A DNA stretch of 20,000 nucleotides. Origin: Psammoneis japonica (Eukaryota). Position numbers and translations under genes: made by a program. Below, piece by piece: positions 196-19,350 of the stretch (positions are counted from its first letter, which is position 1; each line of letters starts with the position of its first letter). A model generated the notes under the pieces. The model made no database searches. It saw only the letters and a list, made by a program, of their open reading frames with translations, and was not told the DNA's origin. Location: contig QPGO01000100.1 in assembly GCA_008632985.1 (NCBI GenBank), forward strand, positions 288,037-308,036. The letters run 5' to 3'.

Positions 196-1272
196 GGATT
201 TCTTTTTTGAATTGTGTGATTTGTATTCGTATTTTAGACAAAATGGTTGGTTATACATCCTTTGGTTTTGATTGTTTTGTCGTTGTTCAAGTTTGCGGCA
301 AGTGGTTATTATTACTTTATTTTTGTACTGCAAGCTCGCATGTCTTGTTCCTACAATAGCGGCTGTTATCGATTCTCATTTCCAAGAGAAGTGGAAAAGT
401 CCAAATCATTCTTGCGTGTGTTGAAATAGAGCAGAACTAGTCTCTATAGAGAGAATCAGAGATAATAGAGAATCTCTATAGTTAGTTAGTAGCTTGATCT
501 CGAGAGAGTAGTTAGTTCGTTCGTCGGTTGACTCGTCATTTCACGATTTCAACACGATGTTGCCACATTGATGTAGTGGCGTCAATCTAAATCCATATAC
601 ACCACGAGATTTGGCCAAGGCAGCTATACATTGTGAACTCTAGGTTGGCGTTGATTTTTAAACTCGGTTTTGCTTTGATATCATCTCTAGCTCAATGTTT
701 TAGAGTTTTTCCCTATAGTTTTGTACAACTTGGACGAGACCTGCATGAAATGGGGCGTCGTGTGTCATGATGGGACCCATCATCTTGATCTATCTAGAGT
801 GTACTGTACCACGAAGCGAAAGAAGCGCGGCGGTTACGATGGGCAATTAAAAAAATGTCAATAATTGAAGTAAATAAACACGTGGAATGTGGTCTCTGAC
901 CTTATTGCGTGGCTGAAGAAAACACGAGCTAAATCGCTGTCACTTCCAAATCTCCCTCCGACCTCATCACAACATCAGCTGAAAACAAACACCAAAACCC
1001 GCCGTCGTTCTACAGTCCCGGTTCATTTCAGGAGAATCATACCCCATATCCAGCCCAACATTGAATGTTGTAAAAGGTGACAACACCATCTTCCCCTCTC
1101 TCGGGCGGCACGATCGATGCGGGGGAGTTGTGTTTTTGGTGCGTTTCACGCAGAAATCTACGTGTCTGGTGCTTGACGTTGATGCTTCCTCTCGATGGAT
1201 GCCTCAGTTTCTGCTCTCGATTCTCTCACAATCTTTTCTTTGACCAGGAAGTAACACAGTCAAGACATCGCC

Positions 1273-2720
1273 ATGATTGCCTTCATGAAGAACCTTGTTG
1301 TCATCTCCCTTGGCATTGCTGCCGGTGCCGCGAGTGCTGGTCCCTTTGCCCGCCCGCTTTCGGCCGTCTTTGACTCGACGGTGCAAGGTGTGTTGATTGC
1401 TGTGAAAGCAAGTCAAGACATGCTTCACATTGCTTTGGCCATGACCACAATTTTTGCGCCGATCGAAAGCCATGATGACTCCTTCATCCGCCTCCCAAAA
1501 CATCCTCCGCAACACCACACCTGCGAGCATGCCCGTTGAAGCTCAAATCAGGTCGAGCATCTATTGTGTGTCTTTTGACCACAAGGACTGCGACTCCACC
1601 CTTCTTCACAACATCATTCGAAACTGCACACCTGTGGACGACGTGCCAGTTGAAGCTCTAAAAGCCTCGAGCTCTGTCTGCCAGTCTTCCTTCGACTTGT
1701 CCTTGGAGCACGAAATCGATTTGTCTGGCCGTTTCCAAGAAATCTTTCAAGAGCACGTGCCCACCGCAATGATGCCCATCCTGACATTTTCCGACACTTG
1801 CAAGATTTTGTCAAACTGTGCCATTGAGACCACGTTGAAGTTGCACACGACACTCCATGAATTCTCTTTGAAGACCACCAAGACTGTTCGTGAAACCGCT
1901 TCGAGCTTGCACAAGATCATCCATGACTCCTTGAAGACCTTTGTCACAAAGATGCAAATTCAGGCTTGCATTTGGAAAGAACACATGATGACGCAGCTTC
2001 AGACACCAAGATTGTCATTGGAATGTTGGTGGACGACAATTTTCAAGAATCAACAAATGGCTTTGTCACGCTTGTTCAAACTCAGGCTTGTGCTCTGCAT
2101 GAAAAATACGAGACGATGCTGTTTCAGACACCAAAATTGTTCTGCATCCAGAACATTGGTGGACAAGAGTTCAAAACTTGTGGAAGAGCTTTTAGTCTGG
2201 GTGCGAGTGTGGGCGAGCGAGATGTCAAGAGTTGGGGACATTCCTTGTGTCCCGATCCGAATCATGCGGTGAATTGGGTTGGTTGTCAGACACAGGGTTT
2301 GGAGTTCCAAGTCGCCAGTTGTCAGATGATGCAGCAGGTGTCCTGTGCAGACACAAATGAAAATTTATCCATCTCTGTCATAATTCACATGCTGGGTTGG
2401 TGTCCATTGCTCCATCAAAAAGGTTGTGCCGCAAACCGTGTCTCCCAAGAACGACTTCCGCGCGCGACTGCCTGATGATGATCCAAGCTGCCTTTGCCAG
2501 TGCAGCTTCAGACAGACCCACAGCACTTGCGTGGCACAGAACCTGTCGGCATCACACTCGCACAAGAGGAAACCGCAGAGAGGGAAGGCTCTGGCGCATG
2601 CCAAGATGACTTTGATTGTTGCAAAGAACACGAACAACATGCACCGTGCCAGTCGGCAAGACTCACAAGTGTTTTCGGCTTGCCCAGACGCATGTAACGC
2701 ACAGTTTGAGACCTTCTAAT
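1273..2720 (+). pseudogene. Degenerate gene of unknown family with a hydrophobic N-terminus and internal repeats, split over several frames
   Basis: Successive overlapping + ORFs (1273-1539, 1454-2272, 1966-2475, 2426-2719); signal-like start MIAFMKNLVVISLGIAAGAASA; internal ~122-bp repeat (1939 vs 2061); almost no Tyr. No family recognised and boundaries are approximate. Confidence 0.35.
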
Positions 2721-2779
2721 GTCGCAGACGCATGCTGTGAATGTGAACTCTGTTGATGCAGTGGATTGAGCTGTGGTCA

Positions 2780-3433
2780 TCGTGCCAAATTTGGTCACCA
2801 TGAATTTCTTGCGGGGACTGCGACAGGCGTTTTCAACGGGGGTTCAGCAATTGAGAAGCTGTGTCGTGTGTGTCAGCCTCAAGCGCTTGCACTCTTTGGA
2901 TCCAAAAATGTTGCAGCAGCTCACAGACTTTAAGCCTGAGAGCATCATGCCCAAATCTCTGGCCAGCTGATCAACTGGAGGATCAGATTTGAGGCCCTCA
3001 GTGTCAGCCTGCTGGGACACAACTGGCTCTTTGCACTGATGAATCTTGGTCCTTGCCGAAGAGAGATTGCTGTTGCTTGAGAGTTGATCTGCTGAATCGA
3101 TTTCATGCGCACAGTGAATGCGAAGCCATTGAGCCACAACGTGAGGTCTGGCTGAGACACTTCTTTGCCCGTGGGCCTTGCGATGGAGCAGCTGATGCAA
3201 TTGCCGAGAGCAGGTCGCTTTGCAAGAGTGTCGGTTTGGCAAAGGCCATTGCAGACATGTGGAATCGGATTTGGTCCAATGCAACCCCATGGAGTGGCAA
3301 GAGTTACGTCAAGGAGAACATCACGACTCTCCTCGGCATAAAAGTCACCCACCGTGACTGCAAATGAGCCATCATCCCTCTTGACGGCACTTTCATGATG
3401 GACTTTGGTGATTTTGTCACCAAGATTTGCCAC
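2780..3433 (-). pseudogene. 5'-truncated, frameshifted fragment of a VWA-domain protein (post-VWA region and Vwaint-like C-terminus)
   Basis: VTVGDFYAEESRDVLLDVTL resembles the GDLYAEExRD motif that follows VWA domains. In other frames: HVVAQWLRI...ARTKI...DQLARDLGMMLSGLKSVSCCNIFGSKECKRLRLTHTTQ and NACRSPRKKFMVTKF, resembling the helical tail ending in HxxQR. No MIDAS motif seen upstream. Confidence 0.7.
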
Positions 3434-3949
3434 CTCTTGGTTTTGGTCACGTGACGGGCCTGTAGAAAACCCAACGAGTTTGATGACTTTCTTGTCACGT
3501 GCTTTGGAGCACTCTCAAGTCGCTTCTTCTTGCTGATTGACAGAGAAGGGATGACCACGTGTGTTCGACTGTCGCGACTGAGCAGGAAAGTGTGAACATG
3601 GCGAGGTCACGTGCATTCTGCAGCAAAAGTGAACTTGATGAGTTGGCAATGGGAACCTCTTCATTGTTGCTTCACTTCTTGGTGCGCCAACTGTCAAGTG
3701 TGCATGAAATGTCGTGTGCTCGCACTCAAAAGAACGCGACCATGACGTCAAGCTCATTGCTCTTACAAAACTGCTTTCCACCCGGCCTCGGTCTAAAATC
3801 AATGTGCCATCAGTGCCCACATGGACATCATTCCAGAAAAGCACGGGGTGTCAGTCTGGCTGGGCAAAAGAGTCCAAAGGACATCACAAACCCACTGTCC
3901 ATCAAGTTTTTGTCTGGCTTCGGAGTCCAGTGGCTAGACTCTTGTTCCA

Positions 3950-4819
3950 GTTCTAAAGCTTTCAATTCATGCAACGGCGGCACATTCTCCATCACTCCCG
4001 GGTTCCAGTTTCTCCCAGATCACCCCCATCATTGGCTTTTTAGGTGGTGGCTCAATTTGCATCTGCTGAGTTGGCGTTGCAATGTAGTCAGAGAGGGTGT
4101 CGCAAGGGCTTGGACAAAGTTCCTGATCGGAAACAACCTGGCAGTCATGAACCAAAGATGCAACTGGCATGCCCAAGTCGATGACTCCAATCTGGTGGAG
4201 CACAGCCCATTCCAGGTCAAAGCATCCATGTCCCTTGCCAAAACGCAGCCCATCTCGGTTGACGACTGAGGCTCCTGCAACTGCCAAATCTAATTTGCTG
4301 TGCCTCTGACGAATGTCCGACAACGAAACGCATTGCCGACATCTTTGCAGTTGTCCAGCAAAACAGTTGCACTGGCGGTGCCGGCAGTCTCTCCATCTGA
4401 TGGCCTGATTTTCAAAATTACCTTCTGCATCCCACCTGTTGGCATGACAACCACCTTGCCGTCTTGTCCTTCTGCGCATCCCAGCAGCTTCTCGAGACAG
4501 TTGTCAGGTGTGATGAAGATGGTTTTTGCTTCTGAACATGCTTTCATTTGTCACAATCTTTTCGTTGCAAGTTCGCTGCCTTCAAAGTCTGGAATGAAAT
4601 GGTTGAAGTCACAGCCATGACACTTGTGAGGTTTCGCCACTCGCTCCATTCTCGTCACACCCACTTGGCGTTGCAGCCTTGCGCCAAGTTGCCACGTCAT
4701 TTTGTCCCACTGACAGCAGCTTGCAGTGGACGGGAGGTGCAGGCGCGAGGGACAGCTGGTTGTTCTTCACTGGCATTTGTCATGGATTCTCTGCTTTTGC
4801 CCATTGTGGAGGCACCCAT
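3950..4819 (-). pseudogene. 5-formyltetrahydrofolate cyclo-ligase-like (MTHFSD-type) pseudogene
   Basis: Motifs in the expected order across frames: RVAKP..DFNHFIPDFEGSELATKRL, TIFITPDNCLE, LDLAVAGASVVNRDGLRFGKGHGCFDLEW, VHDCQVV, DYIATPT, GVIWEKLEPG/VMENVPPLHELK. In-frame TGA at 4551-4553 and several frameshifts. Confidence 0.85.
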
Positions 4820-5290
4820 GGATGTTCTGTTCCGCAGAAATGTGAAAGGCAGAATCTCTGGCCTGGGGTGGCAGTCGCGTGGATTCCTTCTCCATTGACC
4901 GTCATCAAAAGCAACACCACAGAAACATTCCTGCCAAGGCAGTTGCACATTTAGGAAATGAAACGTTCTTCCCAACACCGGCAGAAGTGAAGGATTCTTT
5001 TCGAACCTCGACGGTCAATGGCGGGTCCAATCACAAAACACAAAACATCTCGCAGTGGAGTCTCTGCTCTCTGCTCGCTGCAACAAAGAGTGAGTCCATT
5101 TTCATCAGGAGCTGGATGAAGCCCATGGTACAAACTTAGAGACAACGGGTCTAACGGCACCAGCGCCATTGTCGAGAATCAATCATTAGATTTTGATGAT
5201 GCTCTCTGCAGATGTTGCAGAACGTAGGTTCCACGTAGAAGTAATGCTATAAATCTCTCCCCAGCGTTTGAATTAACAATTTCTTACCCG

Positions 5291-5347
5291 GTCTGACATC
5301 CGTCTGACATCCGTCTGACACCCGTCTGACATTTTTTTTTGTCAGAC
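5291..5347. repeat. Four GTCTGACA copies at 11-bp period plus one inverted copy
   Basis: GTCTGACA at 5291, 5302, 5313 and 5324; then a T-run; then TGTCAGAC at 5340-5347. Confidence 0.95.
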
Positions 5348-5378
5348 TACTCACAAAATACACGAAAAAAATTCGTTT

Positions 5379-5418
5379 TGAAACGCCCGTGAAACGCCAG
5401 TGAAACGCTCGTGAAACA
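5379..5418. repeat. Four TGAAAC(G) copies at 11-bp period
   Basis: TGAAAC at 5379, 5390, 5401 and 5412 (units TGAAACGCCCG / TGAAACGCCAG / TGAAACGCTCG / TGAAACA). Confidence 0.95.
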
Positions 5419-5706
5419 TTTGTGTGAGAATTCTGTATTCGCTGAGGATTGTTTTTGCGTAGGATTTCTACGGAGAGCTACGACGTACTGTACCTATCTC
5501 CCCACGTTATTTTGCACCTGCACCCGACTGCGCTGTTTTTCTGAAAAGTTCATTCATCGAACCAACGACAACAAGCACAGTTGTAGTTTCCCTAACCACT
5601 AAAATTCACAAATCATTGCATATCTGTACTCTTCAGCAACAGCAAGAAAAACAAGACAGAGCGAGGTGTGTTGCGAGAGTCAAAAGAGCGACAATAGAGG
5701 CGATTG

Positions 5707-6996
5707 ATGTTTTGCGTCCTTCTTGGCCTTGTTCCTCCCAATTTGGATGTTTGGAAAAAAGTAAAGGAGCAAATAATAACAACAACAAGTAGTGCTGCTC
5801 GTGATGGTAATGACGACCATGTGAATCTTCATCTCGAGTGGAGAGGTGAATCGCTAGCCACCGACGACGGGACCCTGACATTGCTCGTCGAGGCAGTAAG
5901 TGATGAACAAGCAACGCCGGAATCAATACGAGAACTTGTCGAAAAGGAGTTGTCAAACTATTCTCAAGCAGACGACATTTCGTGTGAAGTGTGGGCCTCG
6001 GCTCCGGCGCCCTTGCCTCTGCGCCCATTGGAAAGTGATTACATGGATCTTTTTCATATCCATACCGACATGATGGTTCGACTGAAACGACGACAAGAGA
6101 CGACAGTACCACCACTGTGGATACGGCAAGCAGAACGATGCGTCAATGGGGAATTCTCGTACAACACAATGTGTTGAATGAGACTCAAGTACAAGAGTTG
6201 CGTCTCCTCGTGGACGAGGCAGTTTTGCAAGCCGAACAATCCCTTGCCAAACACCGACCCGACATTGTCGTAGGACGAGATGTCTTTTTGTTTCAAGAAA
6301 TGGCGTCTCGGAATCTGGAGCGGTTTGATCTTCGTCTAACTGGGGATGCGTCCGACTTTGTAGAAGACCATATTCTGAACAACACGGCCGTGTCGGCCTT
6401 GCTGGAAGCAATTTTGGGAAAGGATGACGACATTGATTTTGACTTGTCCGTGGTGTATTCTCGGCCGGGAGCTTGTACTCAAGGTTGGCACGCCGATGGT
6501 AACCATCAAGTGGGTGCACTCGATGCTGGATGGACCGCCGACGGCTGGAAAACGTCGTTGGCGGATGCCTATGCCGTTTGCATGTTTATCCCCTCATTGA
6601 TTTAAACCAGCATGTCGGATTTACCCAATTTTGGCCGGCCTCTCATCAACACCGTGACTTGGTGGGTTTTGGAAAAGTAGCCGAAATCACGCAAGCCACC
6701 TTGGATGGGACATGCTGGCGGGAAGCGCAATCTGGTATGACTACCGATTGCTTCATCGTGGAATGCCCAACCAATCGACCGTTGTTCGTCCCGTCGTTCA
6801 AATTATTTTCAAAAAGAAATGGTACATTGAAAAAGCAAATTATGGAACCGAACCAATTATAGCCGCAGTACAGACAGGAATAGTAGAGTTTAGATTTCGA
6901 ATTACTCTTTTATCAACTACGTCGTTGCATCCATCCGTCCTTTATACGAGACGACAAAGGAAACGACCAATCGTCAAGATCATGGCGATACTCTAA
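5707..6996 (+). CDS. Phytanoyl-CoA dioxygenase (PhyH)-like Fe(II)/2-oxoglutarate dioxygenase; 3 apparent frameshifts (assembly errors or pseudogene)
   Basis: QGWHADG (HxD), VCMFIP/LIDL..GFTQFWPASH, GSAIWYDYRLLHRGMPN and RPV motifs occur in consecutive ORFs. Frame changes near 6065, 6592 and 6713. The true stop may lie near 6885. Confidence 0.8.
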
Positions 6997-7167
6997 AAGC
7001 AGCGGCAGCGCTAAACAAAAACAAGTATTCTAGTTTGAATTATGACTATTAATTTTTTCTTCCTACACTGCTTTTATGCTTTCTTTTTGAAGTTGCTTCT
7101 TGTTGTTGCTGTTGATATTGCCCCCCCTACGAGTTCATTCCCCTACTCCACCCCTACTACACACTAA

Positions 7168-8045
7168 CTACACAAGGGATCGCTTGACAAGTTCTTGATG
7201 GAACACACCCTTGATTTCTCGTGCCATTTCGTAAACCGCCGAACCCTTTTGGTTATACGTCAGGGCATTGTCAAAGGTCAAGTTCACGTCGGATTGAAAC
7301 TGTTCCAACGTTTCATAGCTGCTGAGCTTCTTTTCGACGGTACCAGGTCCATGGGAGTCTTGATGATTTCAAAGTAATCGGGGATTTGAAGGAATACCGG
7401 ATCGACGGGATGATTAAAGACCCATCCGTGATCATGAGTCTTGAGTGAGCGGAGGATTTCCATACACATGGATCGAAGGGCCGGGCTCATGACTGGCTTG
7501 TCGTCGTTGTTGTCGTCGTCGCTCCATGTGATTCGTGCTTTCTTGACTGTGGGAGTTACAATGGGACAACTACTGTCGGTACTGTTGCTACCATGGTCAT
7601 CATCAAATGGTAAAGGCTCAAATGCATCGTCCTGATCTCCTTGAAAGACGTCTTGATAGGTAGTAGTCGCTTTGCGTTTCTTGTCTGGAGGAATCACGAC
7701 TCCGGCAACACGGGTAGTCCTACTATTATTCTCCGTCTCTAATTTCAACCGCTTAGCTTTGGCTCGTCCAATCGCATGTCGGACGGGGCCGCAGGTCTGG
7801 CACGTGACATCACGACAATTGCGATAATGAGTCAAAATGTACCGGCTGCTCATACAATGGCGCACCGTGCACTGTCTCTTTTGGCACGACACCAAATGGT
7901 TCCAAAGCGCCTTGAGCTTGGTACAATGGACTGTGACGGGGCACGATTCGTGTTGACATTTCGACGCGTGTCTCAACAACAAGAGACGTTGTTGTTTGTA
8001 GCGGAGCTTCTTATCGGGTACTACTAGAGATGATTGTTCCGTCAT
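7168..8045 (-). CDS. TAZ zinc finger + bromodomain protein (p300/CBP-like modules, no acetyltransferase domain); one frameshift at ~7343
   Basis: [13 protein letters not shown]...CPVTVHC...LWNHLVSC...[16 protein letters not shown]....C..C is a TAZ finger. [28 protein letters not shown] starts a bromodomain, which continues after adding one G as GTVEKKL...[23 protein letters not shown]...LV* (TAG at 7168-7170). Confidence 0.9.
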
Positions 8046-8542
8046 TGTGTGGGACTGGAAGTGACGACTCCAAATGGCATGTATCGGAGTTGCGCTTATT
8101 TTGATCACGCCAAATGAAATGGTGCTCTGGAATTTTTTCGATTTGCTCGAAACTCCCTCCGACCTGCCCTCGCGTAGAAATGTACCAGAATCTTACGTAC
8201 GACCGTTAGATCGGGTTTGCACGACTGCGGACCGCGGTGAATCGCGGAAATGACGTGTTCCGCATAGCCTCGGACTTTGAAATTATCGCGGCCTACTAGC
8301 TAGAGTACAGTCTACTCTAAACCCTCAGCTATGGCGCACAAAACTCCTTACAGTAGGGCCTAGTAGGTTGACGGAAAGGTGATTTCTAGAGTTTGCCAAA
8401 CAATTAGCCTGCAAGCTACGTACTATTAGAGAGATTTAGAAGCCAGTATTCGTCAGGGAAAAATGAGTGGCTGCTCAGTCCAGGAGAGAAGCAAAGTACT
8501 CTCTGAAAGGAAAAAGGTAAACGGCAAATTATTATGCGGTAG

Positions 8543-9746
8543 TTATGATTGTCGAATAACAGACAAGAAGAATTCGCCCAAGGTTTGGTACCACTCTTCA
8601 GTCATGTGCACATTGTCGGCGTGTTCATTCACCGCCGAGGCTTCAAATGGGTCCAAAAAGGTGGATTTGTGTTGAAACTTGGGTGTTGTGGCGAGAATGT
8701 CCCCGACGGCGTGATTCCAATCTCGAGTTTCATTGAACTTTTGAGGATAATCCTCGGTAGCTGGCGCCGTGTTGCCCAAGAATATAATGTGTTCACATTG
8801 AGGTTCAACAGTTCCAAGTACCACTTGGCGTTCTTTTCAAACATGGGTTGTGTGATATTTGGTATAGCCGCATCATGGTGACCAAAGCAAACGACACAGA
8901 CTGGCTTCCCCCACTGTTCCACATTGGATTTCGTGTTGAAGGTTTTCGATAAGAAGGAGGCAACATTTTCTTGCGTTGTGTGAAACTCTGGAGACTGCAT
9001 TTCCACATCTCGAGCAAATTCTACTCCAAAGTACCCTCCATAGATGAGAGGCTTGGTACTATTGCAAGACTTTTTAGGCGCTCGTCCGTAGTCACCACAT
9101 ATTCTGTCTGACACCCGGCACATCTGTGCAGTAGGGGTTCTCTGCTCCAAAAGACGTTGGTCCTTCGGCATTTTGAAGATAGTTGGGGCGTCCACTTTTT
9201 CTTACGTCTATAGGCTACATCAAATATCTTGTTGTTGTGACAGCGGCGGGCCACCTCATGGCGAAAGCTGTACTTGTTTCCACAGGTTTTTGCGATTCGT
9301 TCCGACGCTTGCTTGAAAGATACTTTCCGACGGTCGTTCTCCGAGCCAGTCGCATAACGGTAGAGTCCCGAAAAATAACCATCTTTGCCCATCCGTTTTG
9401 ATCCAGGCTTTGATTTTTCTTTTTAAACGGGAGGCGCGACGAGAGAACCTTTCTGCATTCAAACTGGTCATCAGGTGACCACTCGCACGACATTTTAATC
9501 TCATTGCTGTCGTCAATCGTTACCTCTTTTTTGTGGTTTGACATAACTGTGCTTTTGGATCCTCATCGAATGCCAGTGAAACTATAACGCGATCCGCAAT
9601 CAGTCCAGCCAGAAACGCCAATGTCAAAATCAGCCACACCTTTTTCTTGTGCAACACCGACGGAGCGACACTCTTTTGATCAGTCGTTACCATTTTCAGT
9701 TTCAGCATAGTAAGGAGTTTCAGCAACTAGGGATAAATCTCCCCAT
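8543..9746 (-). pseudogene. Multiply frameshifted paralogue of the 10228-11532 gene (SGNH/PC-esterase-like type II membrane protein)
   Basis: Shared blocks RWLFFG/DST, VEFARDVEMQSPEF.TTQENVA, GKPVCVV..G.HD..IP.IT, KWYL, EPQCEHII and a C-terminal D..H(M) motif, distributed over at least 6 ORFs. Confidence 0.8.
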
Positions 9747-10227
9747 TGAAGAATCGTCTCCCTCAAAGGTCGGATCCGTACAGTTTCGTTTCATCGTGCA
9801 GCCTTCTTCTAGAGAGAGTCCGAGTACTAGAGTAGAGCCTTCTTCGCAGAAAAAATGAGACTGGGAGGTGCGGCGGGGTCATCGAACTGAAAATGACTGG
9901 TCACAGTCATTGAGTCTGGCAATTTTAAACTATGCAGTACGTATAAATGGATGTTATGTTTTAGTACCGAATTTCAAATTTTGATTCCTGCTGGCGTGTT
10001 TTCGAGATGTCCAATCTACATTCGTCTTGGTAGAGGATCTACATGTGTGGTTGAGGTGCGAAAGCGAACCTTTTCCTTCACAAACCACCTTAAAGTGAAA
10101 GGAAAAGGCCTCGGGTACTTTACCGAAGAGATAAGCATAGCTGTATCCATCACCTTTAAGCTCAACGTTACGATGTTTGCTAGTATTAAACGTCGTTCTC
10201 GGCTGAAATCGGCGTTGACGGAACCCC

Positions 10228-11532
10228 ATGAATTCAAAAATGGAGTTCCAGCCACTGGTCGTTGAATCAGGTGATGACTACCGAGACGACGGCGATCCCA
10301 AATCGTCTAAAACGAACAGCAAAATCCACTCTTCTCCCACAACCTTATCTACAAAACGCCTGCGGCTGCTCGTGCCATTAGTTTTTCTATGCGGAATTAT
10401 TGCAAGCCGAACCGTTACAATACTATTCTCGAGAACTAATTCCAAGGAAGCCCCCAGCTTCGAAATCGACGACAACAAGGAAGAAGAGGGAGCGGAAGAG
10501 TCTATCATAGACTCGGACAAGAGCATGACGCCCATTAGTACGGCTTCTGTGGAGGCTACCAGCCAGCCAGCGAAAATCGAGTGCATCTGGGGTCCTAAAG
10601 CGCAAGACGAGTGTAAAGATTTCCTGAATGCTCGCCTTCCTTACTCTCAACCAAACAGGTCGCCTAGCAGTAGTCGGATTGGCCATCGTTGGTTATTTTT
10701 CGGTGACAGCACAATGACACGGCTGGTTCGGACAACAAATCTTAGTGTCTATCTGGCTCGCAAGGCAGCTGATAGAATCAACAAGGAATGCCCAGACAAG
10801 TTCGAATGTGACCTGCGGCTTGCAAAGAAATGCATGTACAACGAGAAATTTGATTTGGAATACCGAAGGAACATGGACTGGACACCTCCCGACTATTTAA
10901 ACAAGGCTGAGGGACCTAGAGATGTTCCAAATGAGCCCTACTGTGTAGATTGTGGGGGGTGCAGATACGAGTTTGTAGTCTGTAAAGATTTGGGGCCTAA
11001 CAGGACATGCAACGGTCTTGACGCACCAGTTACACATGGAGGGTTGATCACTGTGGAATTCGCTAGAGATGTCGAGATGCAAAGTCCTGAATTTCTAACC
11101 ACGCAAGAAAATGTTGCTGCATTCATGGCTCGCTCGTTTTCTCCACAATCGATTGTCGATTCCCTCGGCAAGCCCGTGTGCGTGGTAAATACTGGGACGC
11201 ATGACTCCAAGATCCCAAAAATCACAACAGAAAAGTTTATGACCAACCTCAAGTGGTATCTTGGTCTACTAGAGCCACAGTGCGAACACATTATATATCT
11301 TGCCACGGTTGCTCCCGAAGCAGATCGGTTCCCCGGACACATTGCCTTGATGTATGAATGGAATATCAAAGTCCACGAGTTTCTCGCCACGGATGCGAAA
11401 TTTCAAGAAAAATCTACGTTTATCAATGTATTCAACACTTCAAAGGAGGAGGAGCACGATGGGAAAATACATATGGAACAATCATGGTACGATGATCTCG
11501 CATCCTTGTTTATGCCACTTATTGATAAGTAG
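10228..11532 (+). CDS. Type II membrane SGNH/GDSL-like (PC-esterase/TBL-like) protein, putative polysaccharide O-acyltransferase or esterase
   Basis: Intact 434-aa ORF with one N-terminal TM segment (LLVPLVFLCGIIA), an acidic stem, WLFFGDSTM (GDS nucleophile), VVNTGTHD and C-terminal HDGKIHM. Confidence 0.75.
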   Translation: MNSKMEFQPLVVESGDDYRDDGDPKSSKTNSKIHSSPTTLSTKRLRLLVPLVFLCGIIASRTVTILFSRTNSKEAPSFEIDDNKEEEGAEESIIDSDKSMTPISTASVEATSQPAKIECIWGPKAQDECKDFLNARLPYSQPNRSPSSSRIGHRWLFFGDSTMTRLVRTTNLSVYLARKAADRINKECPDKFECDLRLAKKCMYNEKFDLEYRRNMDWTPPDYLNKAEGPRDVPNEPYCVDCGGCRYEFVVCKDLGPNRTCNGLDAPVTHGGLITVEFARDVEMQSPEFLTTQENVAAFMARSFSPQSIVDSLGKPVCVVNTGTHDSKIPKITTEKFMTNLKWYLGLLEPQCEHIIYLATVAPEADRFPGHIALMYEWNIKVHEFLATDAKFQEKSTFINVFNTSKEEEHDGKIHMEQSWYDDLASLFMPLIDK

Positions 11533-11781
11533 ATAGCCCGAAGCCCAAAAGGGATGCATTTGCAGCGGGGAACGAAGCGTTCACGGGGTTAAGATCTAAA
11601 AGTAGGGGGACTTTATGACACACACACTAAGATATTTTATGTCTAACAAGAGCGACTGCTCCTCCCGATTCATGCTGTTGAAAACGTTCGGGTTGTCCTG
11701 AAAAAAATCTTGGATGGCTCCTGCATGAGGATTTTGGTAGTAACCCCTCACGCTTCTAGTCGAGCCACCTTTGTTCAGAAA

Positions 11782-12498
11782 CTACTCAGTCGCCTCAAGG
11801 AACCCAGATCTCCTTAATTATTCGTCGTTACGATGGTTCTGATAGAGTCTTGTAAGAATTTCATTTTGTTGGTGTCTTGGGGAGTAGTCACACGAATGAA
11901 CAGGTCAGAGCAGCAGCAGTCGTCAAGGTCCGCGAACTTCTTGACGAAGTAACGGACTCTTTGTTCATAGTCCGTTGGAATTTCTGCAAAGGCCTTGGAT
12001 GGTTCCTGGTCTTGAATGCCGCTCGACAGAATCTGCTTTGCAAACAGGTCCTTTTGATTGAGCACGAGGATTTTGGAAATATCGTTTGCTTCTTTTGAAT
12101 CACAAAGCCTCTCCCAACTCTCCAATGCGCGCTTCATTCGATTCTTCCTTGCGTGCTTAGTGACACTTTTTGCTTTATCTGGACCATACTCGTCGTCATT
12201 TGGCAAGTCTGCAACGAACAAGGCCGCATCCCTGTATTTGAGATACTTGGTCCAGTCACCATTTGGTTGACTTACACACAAACGAGACACGTCGAGAAAC
12301 TCATGCTCAAATCCATCAATCAGGTACCTATATTTGGTAATGAAAGATGAAATTGATTCAACTCTCTCGTACCTTCCATATCGCTCTCGTATCGCTCAAA
12401 GAGCGCCACGAGAGCTTTAGGATCTCCCTCACAAGAATCCTGACTTTGTCCAGGTTCGCTCGCTCCAAGACATGCTCTTCCGGCGCAGGTGCAATCAT
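11782..12498 (-). pseudogene. Degenerate G-alpha-like gene, copy 1 (about 3 frameshifts; pseudogene or assembly errors)
   Basis: ALFVADL..DDEY...NRMKRALESWERLC...ILVLNQKDLFAKQI...VRYFVKKF...FIRVT...DTNKMKFLQDSIRTIVTTNN/LRRSGFL; high DNA similarity to 13469-14293. Indels near 12430, 12395 and 11815. Confidence 0.8.
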
Positions 12499-13468
12499 GG
12501 TTACTGTACCAACAAAATGCTTTCTCTAACTATGTCATTTTCATAAAATGTCGCATTACGTAGGAAATGAAGTTCACGTTTGCTACACTGTATGCAACAT
12601 TTTTTCTTCTTGCTGCCACGTCGGGTTGGGGGTTCGCGCTTCGATCCTTGCTTCGAGATGGTTGATTCTTGTTTTTGTTTGTCACCCGCGATCTTTCAGT
12701 CATGGGTCGTGCGATAGAGGTGGAATCAGGAATCTTTCGATTTACACCTGTTTCAACAAAAATGAAGGAGCGATAATAAGGAGCAACACCGCAACACCAT
12801 GGCGGCGCCATCTGCCGTAGGAGATTGATAGCCGGGCTTCTTTCTGCTGTTACTAACGCAGTCAGACATGAAGGTGATTTGAAGGTCTGAAAAGGCCATC
12901 AAACCGCTCCTAAAAGACACGAGATAGACGCATGAGGAGAAAGGCGCGTCCGTGCCGGGCGTTTACCTACGTTCAAGGAGAAACTTAGAGACACACTACA
13001 CACCCCATGTAAACAAAGCGTTTGATGGATACCTAAGGAGGCATTTTATGTTGAAAGGATAGCAAGATACAGCGAGATTCACGAATTGCTCATCACATCA
13101 ATCTGATCGCTTTGGTCTTGTTCTCCCTGTGAGCGTCCCACAAAGAGAGATCATGAATTAACTTCATAAGTTGTAAGTATAGTCTTTGTTCTCGTAAGTT
13201 GTACTGAAAAGCACCATCCCACATGACGAAGACAAAAACCTTTGCACAGGGAGTTGGATACGTGGTACAAGTCTTTGGACTTGGTGGATTACGATGAAAA
13301 GAACATACTTTCTCTCTGATGGGTGGGATCACATAGTTTGTTGATCAATCGGTGCACCAGAACAGCAAAGTCAGTCTCTCTCACATGATTTCTTCCATCC
13401 TGTTGTCTTTTCAGGAAACTTATGCTTTGACTCTGGTCTCGAAATGTACAGTATTTTGTTGGTATAAA

Positions 13469-14293
13469 CTACCGTGGAAAAGAACGCGTGACGAAAGCTC
13501 GATTCATCATTCGACGTTCAGCCTTTCCAAGCCAGTTCTTGACTCTGCGCGCAACAGACGCAGTGTCTGCTGAGCCATCCAGCAACCCAGATCTTTGTAA
13601 ATTTCCAATCATGATGATGGATCCGATACATTCTAGTATGAAGTCCGAGTTGGCGCTATCGTGCGGAGAAGTCACACGAATGTACAAGTTGGAACGGTGA
13701 CAGTCTTCACATTCTTTGAACTTTTGGATGAAGTACCGGACTCCCTGTTCAAAGTGTTTTGGTTTCCCTGCAAAGTCCCTGAATGGTCCCTGATCTTGAA
13801 TGTCACTCGACAGAATCTTTTCCGCAAACGTATCCTTTTGATTCAGTATGAGGATTTTGGAAATCCCCTTTGCTTCTGGTGAATTGCACAGTCTCGCCCA
13901 ACTCTCCAAGGTGCGAGCCATTCGATTCTTCCTTGCCGGTTTACTATCACTGTACTCTTTGCTGGAATCGCAGTATTCATCATAGTCGGCTAAGTCTGCA
14001 ATGAACAAGACCGCGTCCCTGTTTGATAGATACTTGGTCCAGTCACCGTTCGATTGACTTGCAAACAAACGAGACACGTCGAGAAACTCAAGCTCAACTC
14101 CATCAATTAGGTACAAGTACCTATATTTGGTAATGGAATCTGAACTTGATTCAACTCTCTCGAACCGTCCATATCGTTGTCGTATCCCTTCAAAGAGTGC
14201 TGCTTGTGCTTTCGGATCTCCCATTCCGATTACGAGTATTCTGACTTTGTCCTGGTCCGGTTGCTCCAAGACATGCTCTTCCGGTGCAATCAT
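13469..14293 (-). CDS. Degenerate heterotrimeric G-protein alpha-like protein lacking the helical domain, copy 2 (intact, 274 aa)
   Basis: The G-alpha C-terminal half is recognisable: DAVLFIADLADYDE, NRM..TLESW..LCNS, ILILNQKDTFAEKI, GVRYFIQKF, YIRVTSPHD, IIMIGNLQRSGLL. The G1, G3, G4 and G5 boxes are altered. Confidence 0.85.
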   Translation of the reverse strand: MIAPEEHVLEQPDQDKVRILVIGMGDPKAQAALFEGIRQRYGRFERVESSSDSITKYRYLYLIDGVELEFLDVSRLFASQSNGDWTKYLSNRDAVLFIADLADYDEYCDSSKEYSDSKPARKNRMARTLESWARLCNSPEAKGISKILILNQKDTFAEKILSSDIQDQGPFRDFAGKPKHFEQGVRYFIQKFKECEDCHRSNLYIRVTSPHDSANSDFILECIGSIIMIGNLQRSGLLDGSADTASVARRVKNWLGKAERRMMNRAFVTRSFPR

Positions 14294-14536
14294 GGTTGCC
14301 AATTGTGCTTTCTCTATTTGCGTTTAATTCTATAAAGTGTCGCGGTAATGAAAGTACTTCACCTTTCTATGCAGTTTGTGAATGCAGTATTTGCTTTTTC
14401 TTTGAGTTCGCATCTATTTTCAATGCGCTCTGCTTGTCAGAAGAATTGTAAAGCGCGGTGTCAGTCGTGGGTGATGGGTCGTGGGAAATGCGACGACCCG
14501 CCTTACTTACAGTATGGCCCTCTCTCTACTCTACCG

Positions 14537-14596
14537 GTAGCTACTCTCTACTCTACTCTAGCTAGCTAGACTAGATAGAGAGTAGAGAGTAGCTAC
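14537..14596. repeat. Perfect 18-bp inverted repeat in a CTAG/TAGAG-rich low-complexity island
   Basis: GTAGCTACTCTCTACTCT (14537-14554) pairs with AGAGTAGAGAGTAGCTAC (14579-14596); internal palindrome TCTAGCTAGCTAGA at 14557-14570. Confidence 0.9.
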
Positions 14597-15718
14597 AGAA
14601 GATTGTGAAGTTGTAGATTATATACGAGGACCCTCTTCTCACTCAATACGCTCTGTGTATAGTCATAAATTATTATCTCAAATCGTTTTAGACATTCAAA
14701 CTCAATCCATTTCGAAAGGAAAAGCTGACGTACTGTGATAACGCCATCGTTACAATCGGCGACCTCACTGGCTTATTCTTTTTGACCGTTTGGAATCGGT
14801 CAGCAAGGCGCACTACCGCGGCGGTGACGCTAGTAGTAAGTGTTGTAGGCTTTGGGCTCGGCATTTGCGCGGAAATTTTGATTCTGGTTTCACGTCGCTC
14901 ACTACTTGAGTGCAAAAACGAAAACGAAAGGGAGACTCCATCCAGGTTTGTCATAGTAGCCGGGACGTGGATACTGTAGGAACTTGAAATTACTCTCTAG
15001 GAGATTTTAATTGCTGTGGCGGCTTTTCCTCTCTCCAGGCCGGTACAGATGCAGCGAGCTCAAAACGACCGTTGATGGCTCATTCATCTCATTTTCCTTG
15101 TGAAATGTTAACACCAACAAAAGACTCCTCAAATTACAGTGGGCTTATATTATAAACCACTTGAAGGAACGAAAGCCGATTACTTGGCGAACTCGGTAGG
15201 TAAAGAAGTTGAACCAGCACGGGCCAAGAAGAAAGATCGTGGCTACAATGACGAGGATAGTTAAAAAAAAGCATAAGTATTTGTGGCTGCTATTAATAGA
15301 GGTATTGATGCAGACAAAACATATTTGCGGGCTGCAAGCTAAAGCAGAATACAGCTACCGCACTCCAAAATGGGCAATTACAAATATGAGCCATGACGAA
15401 TTCATGAAGAGGAAACTCAAAATAGAAGTACGATGGTCAACCCAATCCTTAGATATCCATATACTTGAGGAATACGTTGCGTTTGCGACTATCATTTGTC
15501 CCTGTCCGCAGAACAAGCAGCAGCCAAGGCAACGTCATACTGGCTACAAGAGAGAGCAGGTACGACACCCCTGAGAGCGCATTCAACAGATGTCCCAAAT
15601 CTCATAGACATCCACACAATTCTAATCTAAAACAGACACCAGGAATGCAATAGTATCGTGAGATTTGCCCTGCAATTGTTCGGACAGTGCAATGATACCT
15701 TCACACCAATCGTCGAAT

Positions 15719-16835
15719 TCAAGGACTGTGTCGTTTTAACCGTTTGAAAGGTGGAGGAGCAACGCTTTCTTCCACTATGGCGACGCTAGTATCATAGATT
15801 TTGGTTTCAGGGTTCATGCGGAAGAGCTTGTATACAACCGTCAAGGGCGACGTATTTTCAGCAGCGGCAAGCATGAATGGAAAGAGTCCGTTCTGGTCTT
15901 GGACTGCAAGCAAAGCCGGATGAGCGTTGACCAGAGTGTCAACGCCCTCATCCCATTCTCGGCCGCTTTCGATTGCTAGATGCAAAGGCAGCTTTCCATC
16001 TTGGTTTGGTTCCTTAGCAAGATCAGGCTTTGCATCCACCAGTATCTGCATCGTTGTTTTCAGAGTTCCGCATCGCCGTTCCGTCCTTGCTGCAACGGCC
16101 GCATCATTTATCTTAAAAGTGGAACAGCAACACAATGGACTTTCACAAGTGTGTTTGTCAAAAGAAGCAGATGCAGCAACATGGATGGGCATGTTACCAT
16201 CCTCGTCCATCTCTTTTATTTGATCACGATTTCCTACAATTGCAAGTTGGAGTAGACTTGGTGGACAGTGTTCGATCCCACAACATGCGTGGAACAGTCT
16301 GAATGCCTTTCCGTCAGACAAAAAAGTGTCTGCAATCGACCGATGGTAAAACGCTTTTAGCACAAGCGTCAGCCTCTCGAAAAAATCATTGTTTAAGTCC
16401 CGACTCTCATCACGGAGGGTATTTGCTGCAATGCTTGCAAGAGTACTTTCCCCAGTTTCGATGAGACGGCATGCTTGTCTCATTTTCTTGTGATTGCACG
16501 TGCACAACAGTGTCAAAGCATTCATCCTGCGATTTTTGGCCACGCCGGTGTGATGGTTAATAGATCTGCACGTAACAAGCTTTGTTGCATCCGGCCCATT
16601 CTCAGTCTGCAAACCGGACTGGAGCATTGCTTTCAGCAACATTCGAACAACAGCCACCGAGCTTCTAAGAATCGCATGATTCAACGGAATCACAGCATTC
16701 GCATTGCGAACGCTCACGATGGACAGCATTCTGCTCAACAGAGCAGCAACGAAATGCTCCTCATGTGGGGATACGTTGACGCAGCCAAAGTCAATTGGTG
16801 TGCATCCGGTCCGAGGGTCGCTTGCGGTTGCGAGA
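15719..16835 (-). pseudogene. Ankyrin-repeat-like gene, 3' part, separated from its start by the transposon
   Basis: DEDGNMPIHVAA, NQDGKLPLHLAIESG..W, QDQNGLFPFMLAA...L.VVYKLFRMNP are ankyrin-like repeats. It joins 19244-19350 in frame once the element and one TSD are removed. Confidence 0.85.
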
Positions 16836-16842
16836 CTCCGAA

Positions 16843-19243
16843 TCAAACCCCCAGAAAATTATATTTTTAATTTCCCGCCAGTGCTAGAGCTGTTCCATTA
16901 ATTGCAACTAGAGCTAGAGAGGCTGCAATTAAATTGCAATTAATTGTACAATTGCGACCCAGCAATTACCGCTAATCTTCGTCATCATCGTCATCATCAT
17001 CGCTCGCCACCATGGCCGCCATGGCTGCAATGAGAGCCTCCTCTTCAATCCTCTTGGATGCTCGGCTTTCCTTGTTTTTCTCCAACCTCTTGTTGTTGGC
17101 TTCAACCACATCGCTGACACTCCAGAGATTCTTGTTTTCCTTCAGAAACAAGATCATTTCAAAAACGAGTGGAGACAAACCGGCCCTTCGCTTGGTCATG
17201 ATGTCGTCGGCCTTGCTCCACAGTTGTTCCACCACTGCTGCACTGCCCATGATGAAGCCACAATCAATGTACAAAGACTCGTTCTCCATTTCCCTGGCAG
17301 CCCGCTTGTTGTCTGCTTCCACCGCCTTGTCGATGTCGTCGTCACTGCTGTCGCTGCTGTCATCGCTCTCCTCGTCCCCTTCTGCAGAACCACCCCCACG
17401 ACGTTCAAAGCTGGATTTGAGCAGAAACCTGCAAGCCTGCTTTTCAGCTTTAGTCAATTCGCTCTCGTAGGCCACTCCTTTCTGAATCTTAGCCACTCCT
17501 GTCTCAAAGTCGGGGTGCGTGGACAAGCCGTTGTCGGGCTTGATCTTTTCATCTCCCAGGGTGCACTTGCAGTGACTGCTTTTGGGCTTGTGCGCTTTCC
17601 TTGTCACCTTCGAATGCAGCTTGTTCAGAAGATCTTGGCACTTGCTGAGCGATTTCTTTTTGCTCTGCATGTGGGCCGACACCTTCTTCATCTGCTTCAG
17701 ATGCCGGCCGTGAGTCTTGCATTTCCCAATGAAGGACATCTCTGCAGTTTCCTGGTGTTCCTGCAGCTTGCCCGACTTGTCCTCTTCAACAAGTTTGTGG
17801 CAATGAGGGTGGAGCTTCAGGTGGGACCCGAGGGCTTCTTCCGACCCTGTCCACTTCCTTGTGATGGATGCAGCCTTTGCACGGACGCTGCTGTGCTTGT
17901 CAGGCTTGGCAGCGGCATTTCGGAGTGCAGTGGAACATTTGGCGGAGGCCCTCACAGATGAAGATAGATTGCACACCTTGGTGGTGCAATCCTTCAGCTC
18001 CTCATTCCGTGCCATCATCAGGTCATTCTGCAGCGCCAGGTTGTGATTCTTGCAAGACACATGAGGATGGCCCATGTCGTTTGCAACCTTGATGTTGACG
18101 GATGCACTGTCGGCGGCTTGACAAAGGATGAACGATGTGGCATGCTTGTCACACACGTCGAATGTTTCTTCAATGAAGTTCCGGTGGTGGTCCGCATCAA
18201 ATGACACCGCTTCGAGGTCCTTGTCATCCTCGTCATCCTCCGACATGGCCGGCATGGGTGATGCCAACAGCAAACGCAACTCGTGCATCTCTCTTGTTTC
18301 CTCGGTTCTGTCTGCAATGATGCGCAGCTTCTTGTTGAAAGAAGAATGCAGGGCCACATGATGGACACCGCACTTGGTCCAGCCATCACAAACAACTTGG
18401 CAACCCGGCGCCATTTCCATCACATCAGTGATCTTCCCCTCTGCTGTCTCAGCAAGGTGAAACATGGTGTCCAGCACCGTCTCTGTGCCAGACACTTCAG
18501 GACACTTTGCATGAGACCGTTCGACCTCATTCGTCACGCAGCTGACTGGACGATTTAGAAGGACGATTTTCTCTATCCACACATGGAGCGAGCGGTGGAA
18601 ATTAGTGACAGCCTGAAATTTCTGTTGCACTGGTGCCAAGTTGCCCTCTTTTGCCTCTGCTTCCTTTGCTTCGGCTTCAGCCAATTGTTTTCTGCGCTCA
18701 GCAACAATGACAGGAGCCTGGTCCTTGATGCAAGAGAGCCAATGGTTGCAGGGGTTGGCAAACCCATCTTTCTTCTTGATGAATTTCGAGTGGTTCTTGC
18801 AGTTTGGGCACGTGATTTTATGTCCTTTTACGTCCTCATCGAGAAGCGTGACGGTCGTTTCTTCAACATCCATGACAAGGAGCACAAGTTCTTTGCCCTT
18901 GGGCAAGTCTCCTGCTTGCTCCATTGTGGAGGAAGGAAGTGGGATGCAATGTGACATGCCGTTCACGACGACGACGACAACAACAACAAACAAACTGAGC
19001 AAAAGTGCCAGAACCACACCGACAATTCCTCACCACGGAGTCATGACCGTGTGGAAAACCACGTCTTTTTTGCACTGAGAAAGACACAACAAAGATGCAA
19101 TTTTTTATGTGCAATGTTCAGCAATTAAGCACAATGTAACTCAAGCCAATGCATTGAGGAACAGGTGAACGTGCTGCAATTAATTGACAATTGCAGTTGA
19201 TTGCAACCAATTGCATTGGCAATTGATTGTTCTGGGGGTTTGA
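16843..19243 (-). mobile_element. Complete hAT-like DNA transposon, 2401 bp, perfect 14-bp TIRs, 7-bp TSD CTCCGAA
   Basis: TCAAACCCCCAGAA (16843-16856) and TTCTGGGGGTTTGA (19230-19243); CTCCGAA at 16836-16842 and 19244-19250; GCAATT/AATTGC subterminal motifs at both ends; internal transposase ORF. Confidence 0.93.
16972..18924 (-). CDS. hAT-like DDE transposase (~650 aa), open frame but heavily Tyr-depleted and probably inactivated
   Basis: BED-like finger CPNC...NHWLSC; DGWT; ADSASVN; CKNHNLAL (CxxH); TRKW; GSAAVVEQLWS; RRAGLSPLVFEMILFLKEN. Only 2 Tyr. Start taken at MEQAGD (18924). Confidence 0.88.
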   Translation of the reverse strand: MEQAGDLPKGKELVLLVMDVEETTVTLLDEDVKGHKITCPNCKNHSKFIKKKDGFANPCNHWLSCIKDQAPVIVAERRKQLAEAEAKEAEAKEGNLAPVQQKFQAVTNFHRSLHVWIEKIVLLNRPVSCVTNEVERSHAKCPEVSGTETVLDTMFHLAETAEGKITDVMEMAPGCQVVCDGWTKCGVHHVALHSSFNKKLRIIADRTEETREMHELRLLLASPMPAMSEDDEDDKDLEAVSFDADHHRNFIEETFDVCDKHATSFILCQAADSASVNIKVANDMGHPHVSCKNHNLALQNDLMMARNEELKDCTTKVCNLSSSVRASAKCSTALRNAAAKPDKHSSVRAKAASITRKWTGSEEALGSHLKLHPHCHKLVEEDKSGKLQEHQETAEMSFIGKCKTHGRHLKQMKKVSAHMQSKKKSLSKCQDLLNKLHSKVTRKAHKPKSSHCKCTLGDEKIKPDNGLSTHPDFETGVAKIQKGVAYESELTKAEKQACRFLLKSSFERRGGGSAEGDEESDDSSDSSDDDIDKAVEADNKRAAREMENESLYIDCGFIMGSAAVVEQLWSKADDIMTKRRAGLSPLVFEMILFLKENKNLWSVSDVVEANNKRLEKNKESRASKRIEEEALIAAMAAMVASDDDDDDDED

Positions 19244-19350
19244 CTCCGAAGCTCTTCCTGGGAGCCAGTTGCATCAACGAATTCAATGGCTCTCGTCCAG
19301 TCCCTTTGGCGCACATAATTGAGGAGTGCCCTTTCATCATTGTTCTCCAT
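19244..19350 (-). pseudogene. 5' part of the interrupted ankyrin-like gene
   Basis: MENNDERALLNYVRQRDWTRAIEFVDATGSQEELR continues as SLATASDPRTG from 16835; the reconstructed CDS is 107+1117 = 1224 nt (407 aa). Confidence 0.85.

Follow-up and report, generated by a model that had tools for sequence, protein, structure and literature searches.

Probable footprint of DNA-level TpA-to-TpG/CpA hypermutation over three broken genes and the spacers between them

We analysed a 20,000-nucleotide stretch of contig QPGO01000100.1 (positions 288,037 to 308,036 of the forward strand; here named the window) and found a block of about 4 kb, here named domain 1, in which the dinucleotide TpA (TA) has been almost completely erased in favour of TpG (TG) and CpA (CA). 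Domain 1 is very probably a fossil trace of hypermutation at the DNA level, in which TpA of both strands became TpG or CpA, the process that was reported for Bigelowiella natans (bioRxiv 10.64898/2026.01.13.699255, Mettrop et al.). The direction of the change, its dinucleotide context, its strand symmetry, its extent and its consequences for the genes are visible in the block itself. A second, shorter domain with the same signature (domain 2) lies inside a mobile insertion of the same window.

TA occurs at 5.7 per kb in domain 1, with an observed-to-expected ratio (o/e) of 0.09, compared to 44.6 per kb (o/e 0.61) in the 11.8-kb inter-domain stretch at positions 5129 to 16973 (Poisson P ~1e-49). 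TG and CA are raised to o/e values of 1.56 and 1.55, compared to 1.12 and 1.16 in the inter-domain stretch. Both edges of the domain are sharper than 100 to 180 bp: on the left, TA is found at 1011, 1040, 1047 and 1071 and after that only at 1159 and 1252, and on the right the TA at 4952 is followed by those at 5129, 5137, 5152 and onward. A first-pass annotation, made from the letters alone, had put about 22 TpA between positions 1201 and 5100, which is also the exact count. It had further argued that the loss is not a matter of codon usage, and this holds: the plus-strand gene of the block has 4.0 TA per kb, the two minus-strand gene remnants have 5.7 and 5.5, and the three spacers have 7.9, 8.3 and 2.3, so the depletion is equally deep in genes of both strands and in the DNA between them. 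The sequence context of the surviving TA revealed no pattern. Regarding a strand bias relative to transcription, TG equals CA, and the counts of Tyr-to-Cys versus Tyr-to-His changes were too small to tell.

In domain 1, an excess of ~214 TG plus CA stands against ~158 missing TA and ~48 missing CG, i.e., a rough balance (+52.7, -38.9 and -11.8 per kb, respectively). Undoing 155 inferred TA-to-TG/CA conversions returns the TA o/e to the local value of 0.61 and the GC content from 0.503 to 0.464, compared to 0.460 in the inter-domain stretch. About 155 conversions in 4 kb mean that roughly nine tenths of the TA steps are gone and that GC content rose from ~0.46 to 0.50. In the genetic code, a change from TA to TG or CA never makes a new stop codon, since TAA becomes TGA or CAA and TAG becomes TGG or CAG. 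The block is therefore filled with long, empty open reading frames (ORFs) in all six frames, and because stop-free conversion explains these long overlapping ORFs, they are no evidence of genes. The coordinates of the domains and of the other features are collected in Table 1.

Table 1. Erased domains, genes and other features of the window (positions count from the first letter of the 20,000-nucleotide stretch)
Feature	Position	Strand	Remarks
TpA-erased domain 1	1072..5128		23 TA in 4057 bp; TG, CA o/e 1.56, 1.55; CpG o/e 0.64
Broken gene, many-copy family	1273..2272	+	ATG 1273; ORFs 1255-1539 and 1445-2272 in different frames
C-terminal tail of VWA-domain protein family	2781..3487	-	aa 278-509 of 510-aa homologue
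5-Formyltetrahydrofolate cyclo-ligase family (PF01812) pseudogene, nearly full length	3970..4700	-	tblastn, homologue alignment
TA-poor spacer upstream of cyclo-ligase-like pseudogene	4701..5128		1 TA in 428 bp
Tandem duplicate of C-terminal part of G-alpha gene, internal control	11814-12490 and 13598-14292 (span 11814..14292)	-	81% identical
Mobile insertion enclosing domain 2	16843..19241	-	flanking repeat GACTCCGAA at 16834-16842 and 19242-19250
TpA-erased domain 2	16974..19105		10 TA in 2132 bp, o/e 0.08, P ~1e-28; signature as domain 1

Domain 1 contains three genes, each with a frameshift and two additionally with an in-frame TGA. As codons for Tyr always contain TA, we inspected the columns at which homologues conserve this residue. 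In the VWA tail, five columns have a Tyr majority among 31 homologues (picked by a length of 480 to 620 aa from the first 63 of 96 matches), and they read F, Y, Q, C and C. Cys stands in the motif NACRSPRKK and in the VSCCNIFGSKEC region, where 26 of the 31 homologues carry Tyr in each case. In the cyclo-ligase-like gene, the five columns where Tyr accounts for 30% or more of 53 homologues read C, G, K, A and C, and none is kept; relative to its closest protein homologue (P0006), Tyr is replaced by His at two places. The codons singled out in the first-pass annotation are present, with gca at 4222-4224 of the plus strand giving TGC (Cys, GKGHGCFDLEW) and gtg at 4195-4197 giving CAC (His, AVLHQIG) on the minus strand. 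That homologues have aromatic residues at such sites, as it had supposed, is correct for both VWA-tail motifs and for GKGHG-C-FD (Phe in 31 and Tyr in 22 of the 53 homologues); at AVL-H-QIG only the closest homologue has Tyr. In the ORF of domain 2, one of ten Tyr columns is kept and six read Cys or His, compared to none of the five homologues in the same leave-one-out count. A change from Tyr to Cys and one from Tyr to His affect opposite strands; as both occur, both strands were hit.

Other copies of the block were sought in contigs of public sequencing runs (three runs, X1 to X3, from one sample of one study). A second copy of positions 2723 to 3431 is present in contigs of X1 and X2 and differs from the block by 79 letters and 5 gaps over 709 bases. 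The context count comprises the 35 listed differences at 2755-2958 (40 of 953 contig differences being listed): nine have TG or CA in the block (four TG, five CA) and TA in the other copy, and one is the reverse, which is the direction that the first-pass annotation had predicted for a source copy. The second copy of the VWA tail has a normal TA density, with at least 10 TA in 204 bp. As an internal control, each copy of the tandem G-alpha duplicate has an ordinary TA content (o/e 0.47 and 0.52), and only 5 of the 126 differences between the two are TA-type; the two sets of differences are distinct in this respect (Fisher P 1e-4). Mass balance, Tyr columns and second copy thus agree with the earlier claim of a mutational TA-to-TG/CA footprint left in DNA on both strands.

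X1 alone contains the stretch of the window (0.85 of words), with no RNA run listed as containing it, and one of its contigs, of 2029 bases, spans 3080-5107 with 4 other letters; contigs of X3 gave no match to the window. X2 (label, 'DNA?') passes over a 242-base segment that has GT..AG ends at 13172-13415, within the G-alpha gene, and therefore looks like complementary DNA. It also contains the insertion-free form of the domain 2 locus and the TA-bearing second VWA-tail copy. Little or absent cover of parts of the block in X2 was not taken as evidence on expression.

The signature of domain 1 was compared with that described in the main text of the B. natans preprint. In mutation-accumulation lines of this species, two integrated viral regions acquired 231 new mutations, of which 230 were A-to-G or T-to-C, and all 230 fell on TpA; genome-wide, 124 clusters of 1-kb windows with depleted TpA and enriched CpA plus TpG and 324 coding sequences with low TpA were found, the enriched domains being partly foreign and partly "likely host" (10.64898/2026.01.13.699255). 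The block shares with this process the dinucleotide target, the two products and the action on both strands, and it also resembles the clusters in their gene content, which according to the main text is mostly unannotatable or degraded, with some host-type domains. With Rho computed in its standard form, domain 1 lies within the cluster thresholds given there at both window phases tried, with Rho pairs of 0.11/1.64, 0.11/1.55 and 0.08/1.59 for the windows at 2001, 3001 and 4001 (phase 0) and of 0.09/1.56, 0.10/1.62 and 0.13/1.56 for those at 1501, 2501 and 3501 (phase 500); domain 2 does not. At a TA o/e of 0.09, the block is far more exhausted than the active nucleocytoplasmic large DNA virus region of B. 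natans, for which the main text gives a Rho of 0.45. Overall composition is compatible with B. natans but not diagnostic: in the inter-domain stretch, TA makes up 4.5% and CpA plus TpG 14.2% of dinucleotides, compared to 4.1% (coding sequences) to 6.0% (genome) and 13.7% (coding sequences), respectively, as reported there.

Since the preprint's main text already describes 124 clusters, some with host-type domains, loci of this kind are in print. TA-specific, GC-raising hypermutation of resident DNA, a striking process that resembles a genome defence, is in print only as this one preprint of 2026, and the locus adds no new kind of system; a literature search for "Bigelowiella natans" together with "TpA" yielded no other relevant paper. 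Several features were not found in the main text of the preprint, which does not mention CpG, tyrosine, pseudogenes, hAT or VWA: Cys or His in place of Tyr as a read-out, the deficit of CpG, a second copy with its TA, a tandem duplicate left untouched, and TA kept in the termini of an insertion.

Several observations weigh against a hypermutation of the B. natans type. No more than 10 of the 35 differences listed between block and second copy are TA-type, the rest being ordinary divergence. In the cyclo-ligase family, the Tyr with the highest conservation (51 of 53 homologues) reads Gly in the block and one conserved Tyr of the VWA tail reads Gln, neither of which a single TA step can give, so that more than one step is needed. 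The CpG deficit that accompanies the TA loss is modest, and the preprint's main text (10.64898/2026.01.13.699255) is without mention of a CpG effect. Finally, X1 carries the TA-poor sequence but may be the assembly's own data and is in that case not independent.

Domain 2 spans an unbroken ORF of 681 aa on the minus strand (16972-19017) plus ~88 bp upstream of it. The insertion around it ends in terminal inverted repeats of 12 to 13 bases, outside of which lies the 9-base direct repeat GACTCCGAA, and contigs free of the insertion exist in both X1 and X2, where positions 16833/16835 are joined to 19242/19244 and 2408 bases are skipped. Direct repeat, inverted repeats and insertion-free contigs together identify an insertion of the cut-and-paste type. 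Transposons of the hAT type combine a target duplication of 8 bp with short terminal inverted repeats and a DDE transposase that has a hAT dimerisation domain. The flanking repeat of 9 bases allows for a target duplication of 8 or 9, and the C terminus of the ORF may resemble the hAT dimerisation motif. Erasure is confined to the interior of the insertion: its outer 132 and 136 bp, which are dense in GCAATT/AATTGC motifs, keep 11 and 4 TA, and the erased part ends exactly at the stop codon on one side and ~90 bp upstream of the start on the other. The spared termini have an alternative explanation, namely that erasure took place while the element was still moving, so that only copies with intact ends could transpose.

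The 681-aa ORF keeps 122 of the 137 columns that are invariant in five homologues, which themselves keep 90 to 100%. About 9 of its 15 departures at invariant columns are TA-driven in kind, according to our own classification of the substitutions. The TA that survive in the ORF comprise two in Tyr codons, one ATA, one GTA, two CTA and four codon junctions, a distribution that is not clearly selection-limited. Neither the ORF nor its five homologues had a sequence match in Pfam or PDB, and a PDB profile search gave only weak matches resembling the Mediator-15 coiled coil. The AlphaFold model of the ORF was unusable (predicted local distance difference test score, 41.6).

CpG is depleted within the same limits as TA, with o/e values of 0.64 in domain 1 and 0.66 in domain 2 compared to 0.99 in the inter-domain stretch. 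After correction for the inferred conversions, the values are 0.76 (P 1.6e-4) and 0.77 (P 7e-3), respectively, and among the 35 differences listed for the second copy, four have TG or CA in the block and CG in the other copy, with one reverse. A slower CpG-to-TpG/CpA decay is thus superimposed on the loss of TA. In methylated DNA, CpG decays in the same manner, from CG to TG or CA. The likeness consists in the replacement of CG by TG/CA inside the limits of the domains, and the difference is that this is a minor part here, with ~48 of the ~206 missing pyrimidine-purine steps. The modest deficit is compatible with a heterochromatin state, the other trigger suggested in the first-pass annotation, but proves nothing. 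A literature search on cytosine methylation in Bigelowiella was without a usable match.

Repeat-induced point mutation (RIP), known from Neurospora and other fungi, changes C to T at CpA, which makes TpA, lowers the GC content and creates stop codons, and it is triggered by duplication. Domain 1 resembles its products in being a block-confined, gene-killing hypermutation by transitions at one dinucleotide on both strands of DNA. The direction is the opposite, however: TpA is destroyed here (o/e 0.09), the GC content is raised by 4 points and stop codons are never created. RIP also serves as a comparison in the main text of the preprint (10.64898/2026.01.13.699255). A RIP-like process, in which duplication caused the block to be mutated and homology between copies sets the target, is an improbable explanation. 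Other copies of parts of the block do exist, namely contigs at least 80% alike over ~830-2300 and second copies of 2723-3431 and 4649-5175. Yet the second VWA-tail copy is at normal TA density and the tandem G-alpha duplicate of the same window is untouched, so that duplicates in both window and sample are spared and a duplication trigger is unsupported. Other copies also pass both erasure edges (a joint from 973 to 1149 on the left, a record to 5175 on the right); since they run beyond the edges, the limits of homology and those of erasure differ. In addition, the summed contig depth in the interior of domain 2 (45 to 73) is no higher than over single-contig stretches (53 to 58), and the 186-kb main hypermutable region of B. 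natans is single copy according to the preprint's main text (10.64898/2026.01.13.699255). The target is not defined by duplication, and duplication as the trigger, one of the suggestions of the first-pass annotation, is not supported.

A second possibility does without any mutator and invokes donor DNA with an intrinsically low TpA content or selection against TpA, for example against UpA in RNA. Part of the block may indeed be foreign, since the cyclo-ligase-like gene is of prokaryotic type, and a mild shortage of TpA is seen throughout the window (o/e 0.61). We consider this explanation highly unlikely. To our knowledge, no proteome does without Tyr, and a low-TpA donor is difficult to reconcile with Cys or His at Tyr-conserved columns in three unrelated genes. 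Selection would have to explain spacers that are depleted as much as the genes, and because these genes are broken, their RNA or protein is an implausible object of selection. Against both variants, TA is kept in the second copy of the same sample, and undoing the conversions restores the local GC level.

In animals, APOBEC3 and ADAR enzymes hypermutate viruses and retroelements; they work on single-stranded DNA or RNA intermediates, and their footprint is strand-asymmetric. The block shares with their products clustered transitions of the deaminase type and a preference for a neighbouring base, in systems aimed at invading nucleic acid; it differs in that both strands carry the footprint equally and in that the affected sequence is resident chromosomal DNA, an insertion of the cut-and-paste type included. 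The preprint's main text (10.64898/2026.01.13.699255) takes up both enzyme groups as well. ADAR-like A-to-I editing of double-stranded RNA that was then copied back into DNA is likewise very improbable as an explanation of domain 1. ADAR favours U before the edited A, as stated in the main text of the preprint (10.64898/2026.01.13.699255), and the convergent genes of the block could conceivably yield double-stranded RNA. However, A-to-G and T-to-C are about equally frequent on the same strand (TG 1.56 and CA 1.55; both Tyr-to-Cys and Tyr-to-His), spacers and genes of both orientations are erased as one continuous block, and domain 2 lies in an insertion with inverted repeats and a target duplication instead of a retro-copy. 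In B. natans, moreover, the changes arose in the DNA of a transcriptionally silent region, as the main text reports (10.64898/2026.01.13.699255). An assembly or sequencing artefact, although a single run contains the stretch and is maybe the assembly's source, is hardly credible in view of the sharp edges, conversions that agree with codons and homologues, the 2029-base X1 contig with its 4 other letters, and the occurrence of the same signature, both across the genome and among new mutations, in an independent study according to its main text (10.64898/2026.01.13.699255).

For TpA-to-TpG/CpA hypermutation, the main text of the preprint proposes an adenine deaminase of the ADAT2/3 type (10.64898/2026.01.13.699255). 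By analogy, the adenine in TpA of chromosomal DNA would have been deaminated enzymatically to inosine, which is read as G, on either strand of the block. The process may be aimed at silenced chromatin or at a transcription unit over non-self or decaying DNA, with ordinary CpG decay added on top. Sharp edges, spared insertion termini and the shared CpG deficit would all be in keeping with a limit set by chromatin or transcription. It is conceivable, though rather doubtful, that the mutator is limited by a chromatin or transcription unit and not by foreignness or homology as such, and that an element purged of TpA may be immune to the defence yet functional. If this were true, loci of this kind would let one read from nature how the system is targeted and how mobile DNA escapes it. 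If the window is not from B. natans, it would represent a second lineage with the system.

The locus is a compact natural experiment on target choice, with one gene present in an erased and a non-erased form within a single sample. Further material for this question comes from the untouched tandem duplicate 7 kb away, the insertion that is erased only inside and the CpG deficit with the same limits. For annotators, Tyr-conserved columns that read Cys or His and stop-free ORFs in six frames serve as read-outs.

In the many-copy gene of domain 1, the ATG at 1273 starts a hydrophobic, signal-peptide-like N terminus (ORF 1255-1539), and the following ORF (1445-2272, 275 codons) contains degenerate internal repeats of 111 to 130 bp. 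A single base at 1494 is missing from some other copies, and its absence would bring the two frames together. In other copies of this family, three short stretches that total ~85 bases are free of TA. Summed contig depth over 1273-2272 is 447 to 959 compared to 53 to 58 where a single contig is present, as many as 12 contigs coincide at one position, and many contigs at least 80% alike cover ~830-2300. ORF 1445-2272 gave no protein homologue in the length range of 151 to 482 aa and no Pfam match even at an E value of 5, and nine further ORFs of the block had only chance-level Pfam matches at this threshold.

Damage to the VWA tail consists of one frameshift (near 3141-3143) and one TGA in frame (2843-2845). 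Of the VWA domain (PF00092 / PF13519) nothing is present; homologues carry it at aa ~60 to 280, and the 480 bp upstream cannot hold it. The nearest Atlas clusters of this family are eukaryotic, mainly from diatoms and plants, which is a lead only. In the cyclo-ligase-like gene, an in-frame TGA is found at 4551-4553 and a frameshift caused by a 1-base deletion at 4330-4331. A 178-aa ORF piece scored 25.8 bits with PF01812, below the cut-off of 27, and tblastn with PF01812-bearing proteins covered aa 13 to 227 of 244 to 248 (E 2e-50). Given the frame broken by TGA and a 1-base shift, we regard it as a pseudogene of the PF01812 family and not as a working member. Its identity is 46.6% to the best protein match (P0006) and 44 to 45% to Anaerolineae-type loci, and its relatives at 53 genome loci are all prokaryotic, including Chloroflexota, archaea and Rhizobiales. 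A scan of viral contigs with P0006 and P0037, by a method that finds close relatives only, gave no relatives.

The earlier description of the block as host-type gene pieces therefore applies to the truncated, eukaryote-type VWA tail; it does not apply to the nearly full-length cyclo-ligase-like gene with its prokaryotic relatives, and the left third belongs to a family of up to 12 contigs. That the block contains no transposase, as the same annotation had it, agrees with our finding of none that is recognisable in domain 1. Two of the four units, i.e., the prokaryote-type gene and the mobile insertion, may be of foreign origin.

Another copy, ~88% alike to the spacer at 4701-5128, crosses the right edge of domain 1 and reaches 5175. 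Just beyond this edge lie two tandem arrays with 11-bp units, at 5291-5332 (GTCTGACATCC, 3.8 copies) and 5379-5417 (TGAAACGCCCG, 3.5 copies). One inverted copy of the TGAAACGCCCG unit is located at 1131-1149, close to the left edge.

The window is eukaryotic and carries TAZ/bromodomain, G-alpha and ankyrin genes. Within the inter-domain stretch, an inverted repeat of 89 bases (74% complementary) at 8953-9041 and 11036-11124 brackets an ORF of 434 aa (10228-11532), which has no Pfam match and normal TpA and may be another element. A perfect 18-base inverted repeat at 14537-14596 lies in a TA-rich stretch (TA o/e 1.14) and, with a summed contig depth of ~1450, looks like a very high-copy short element.

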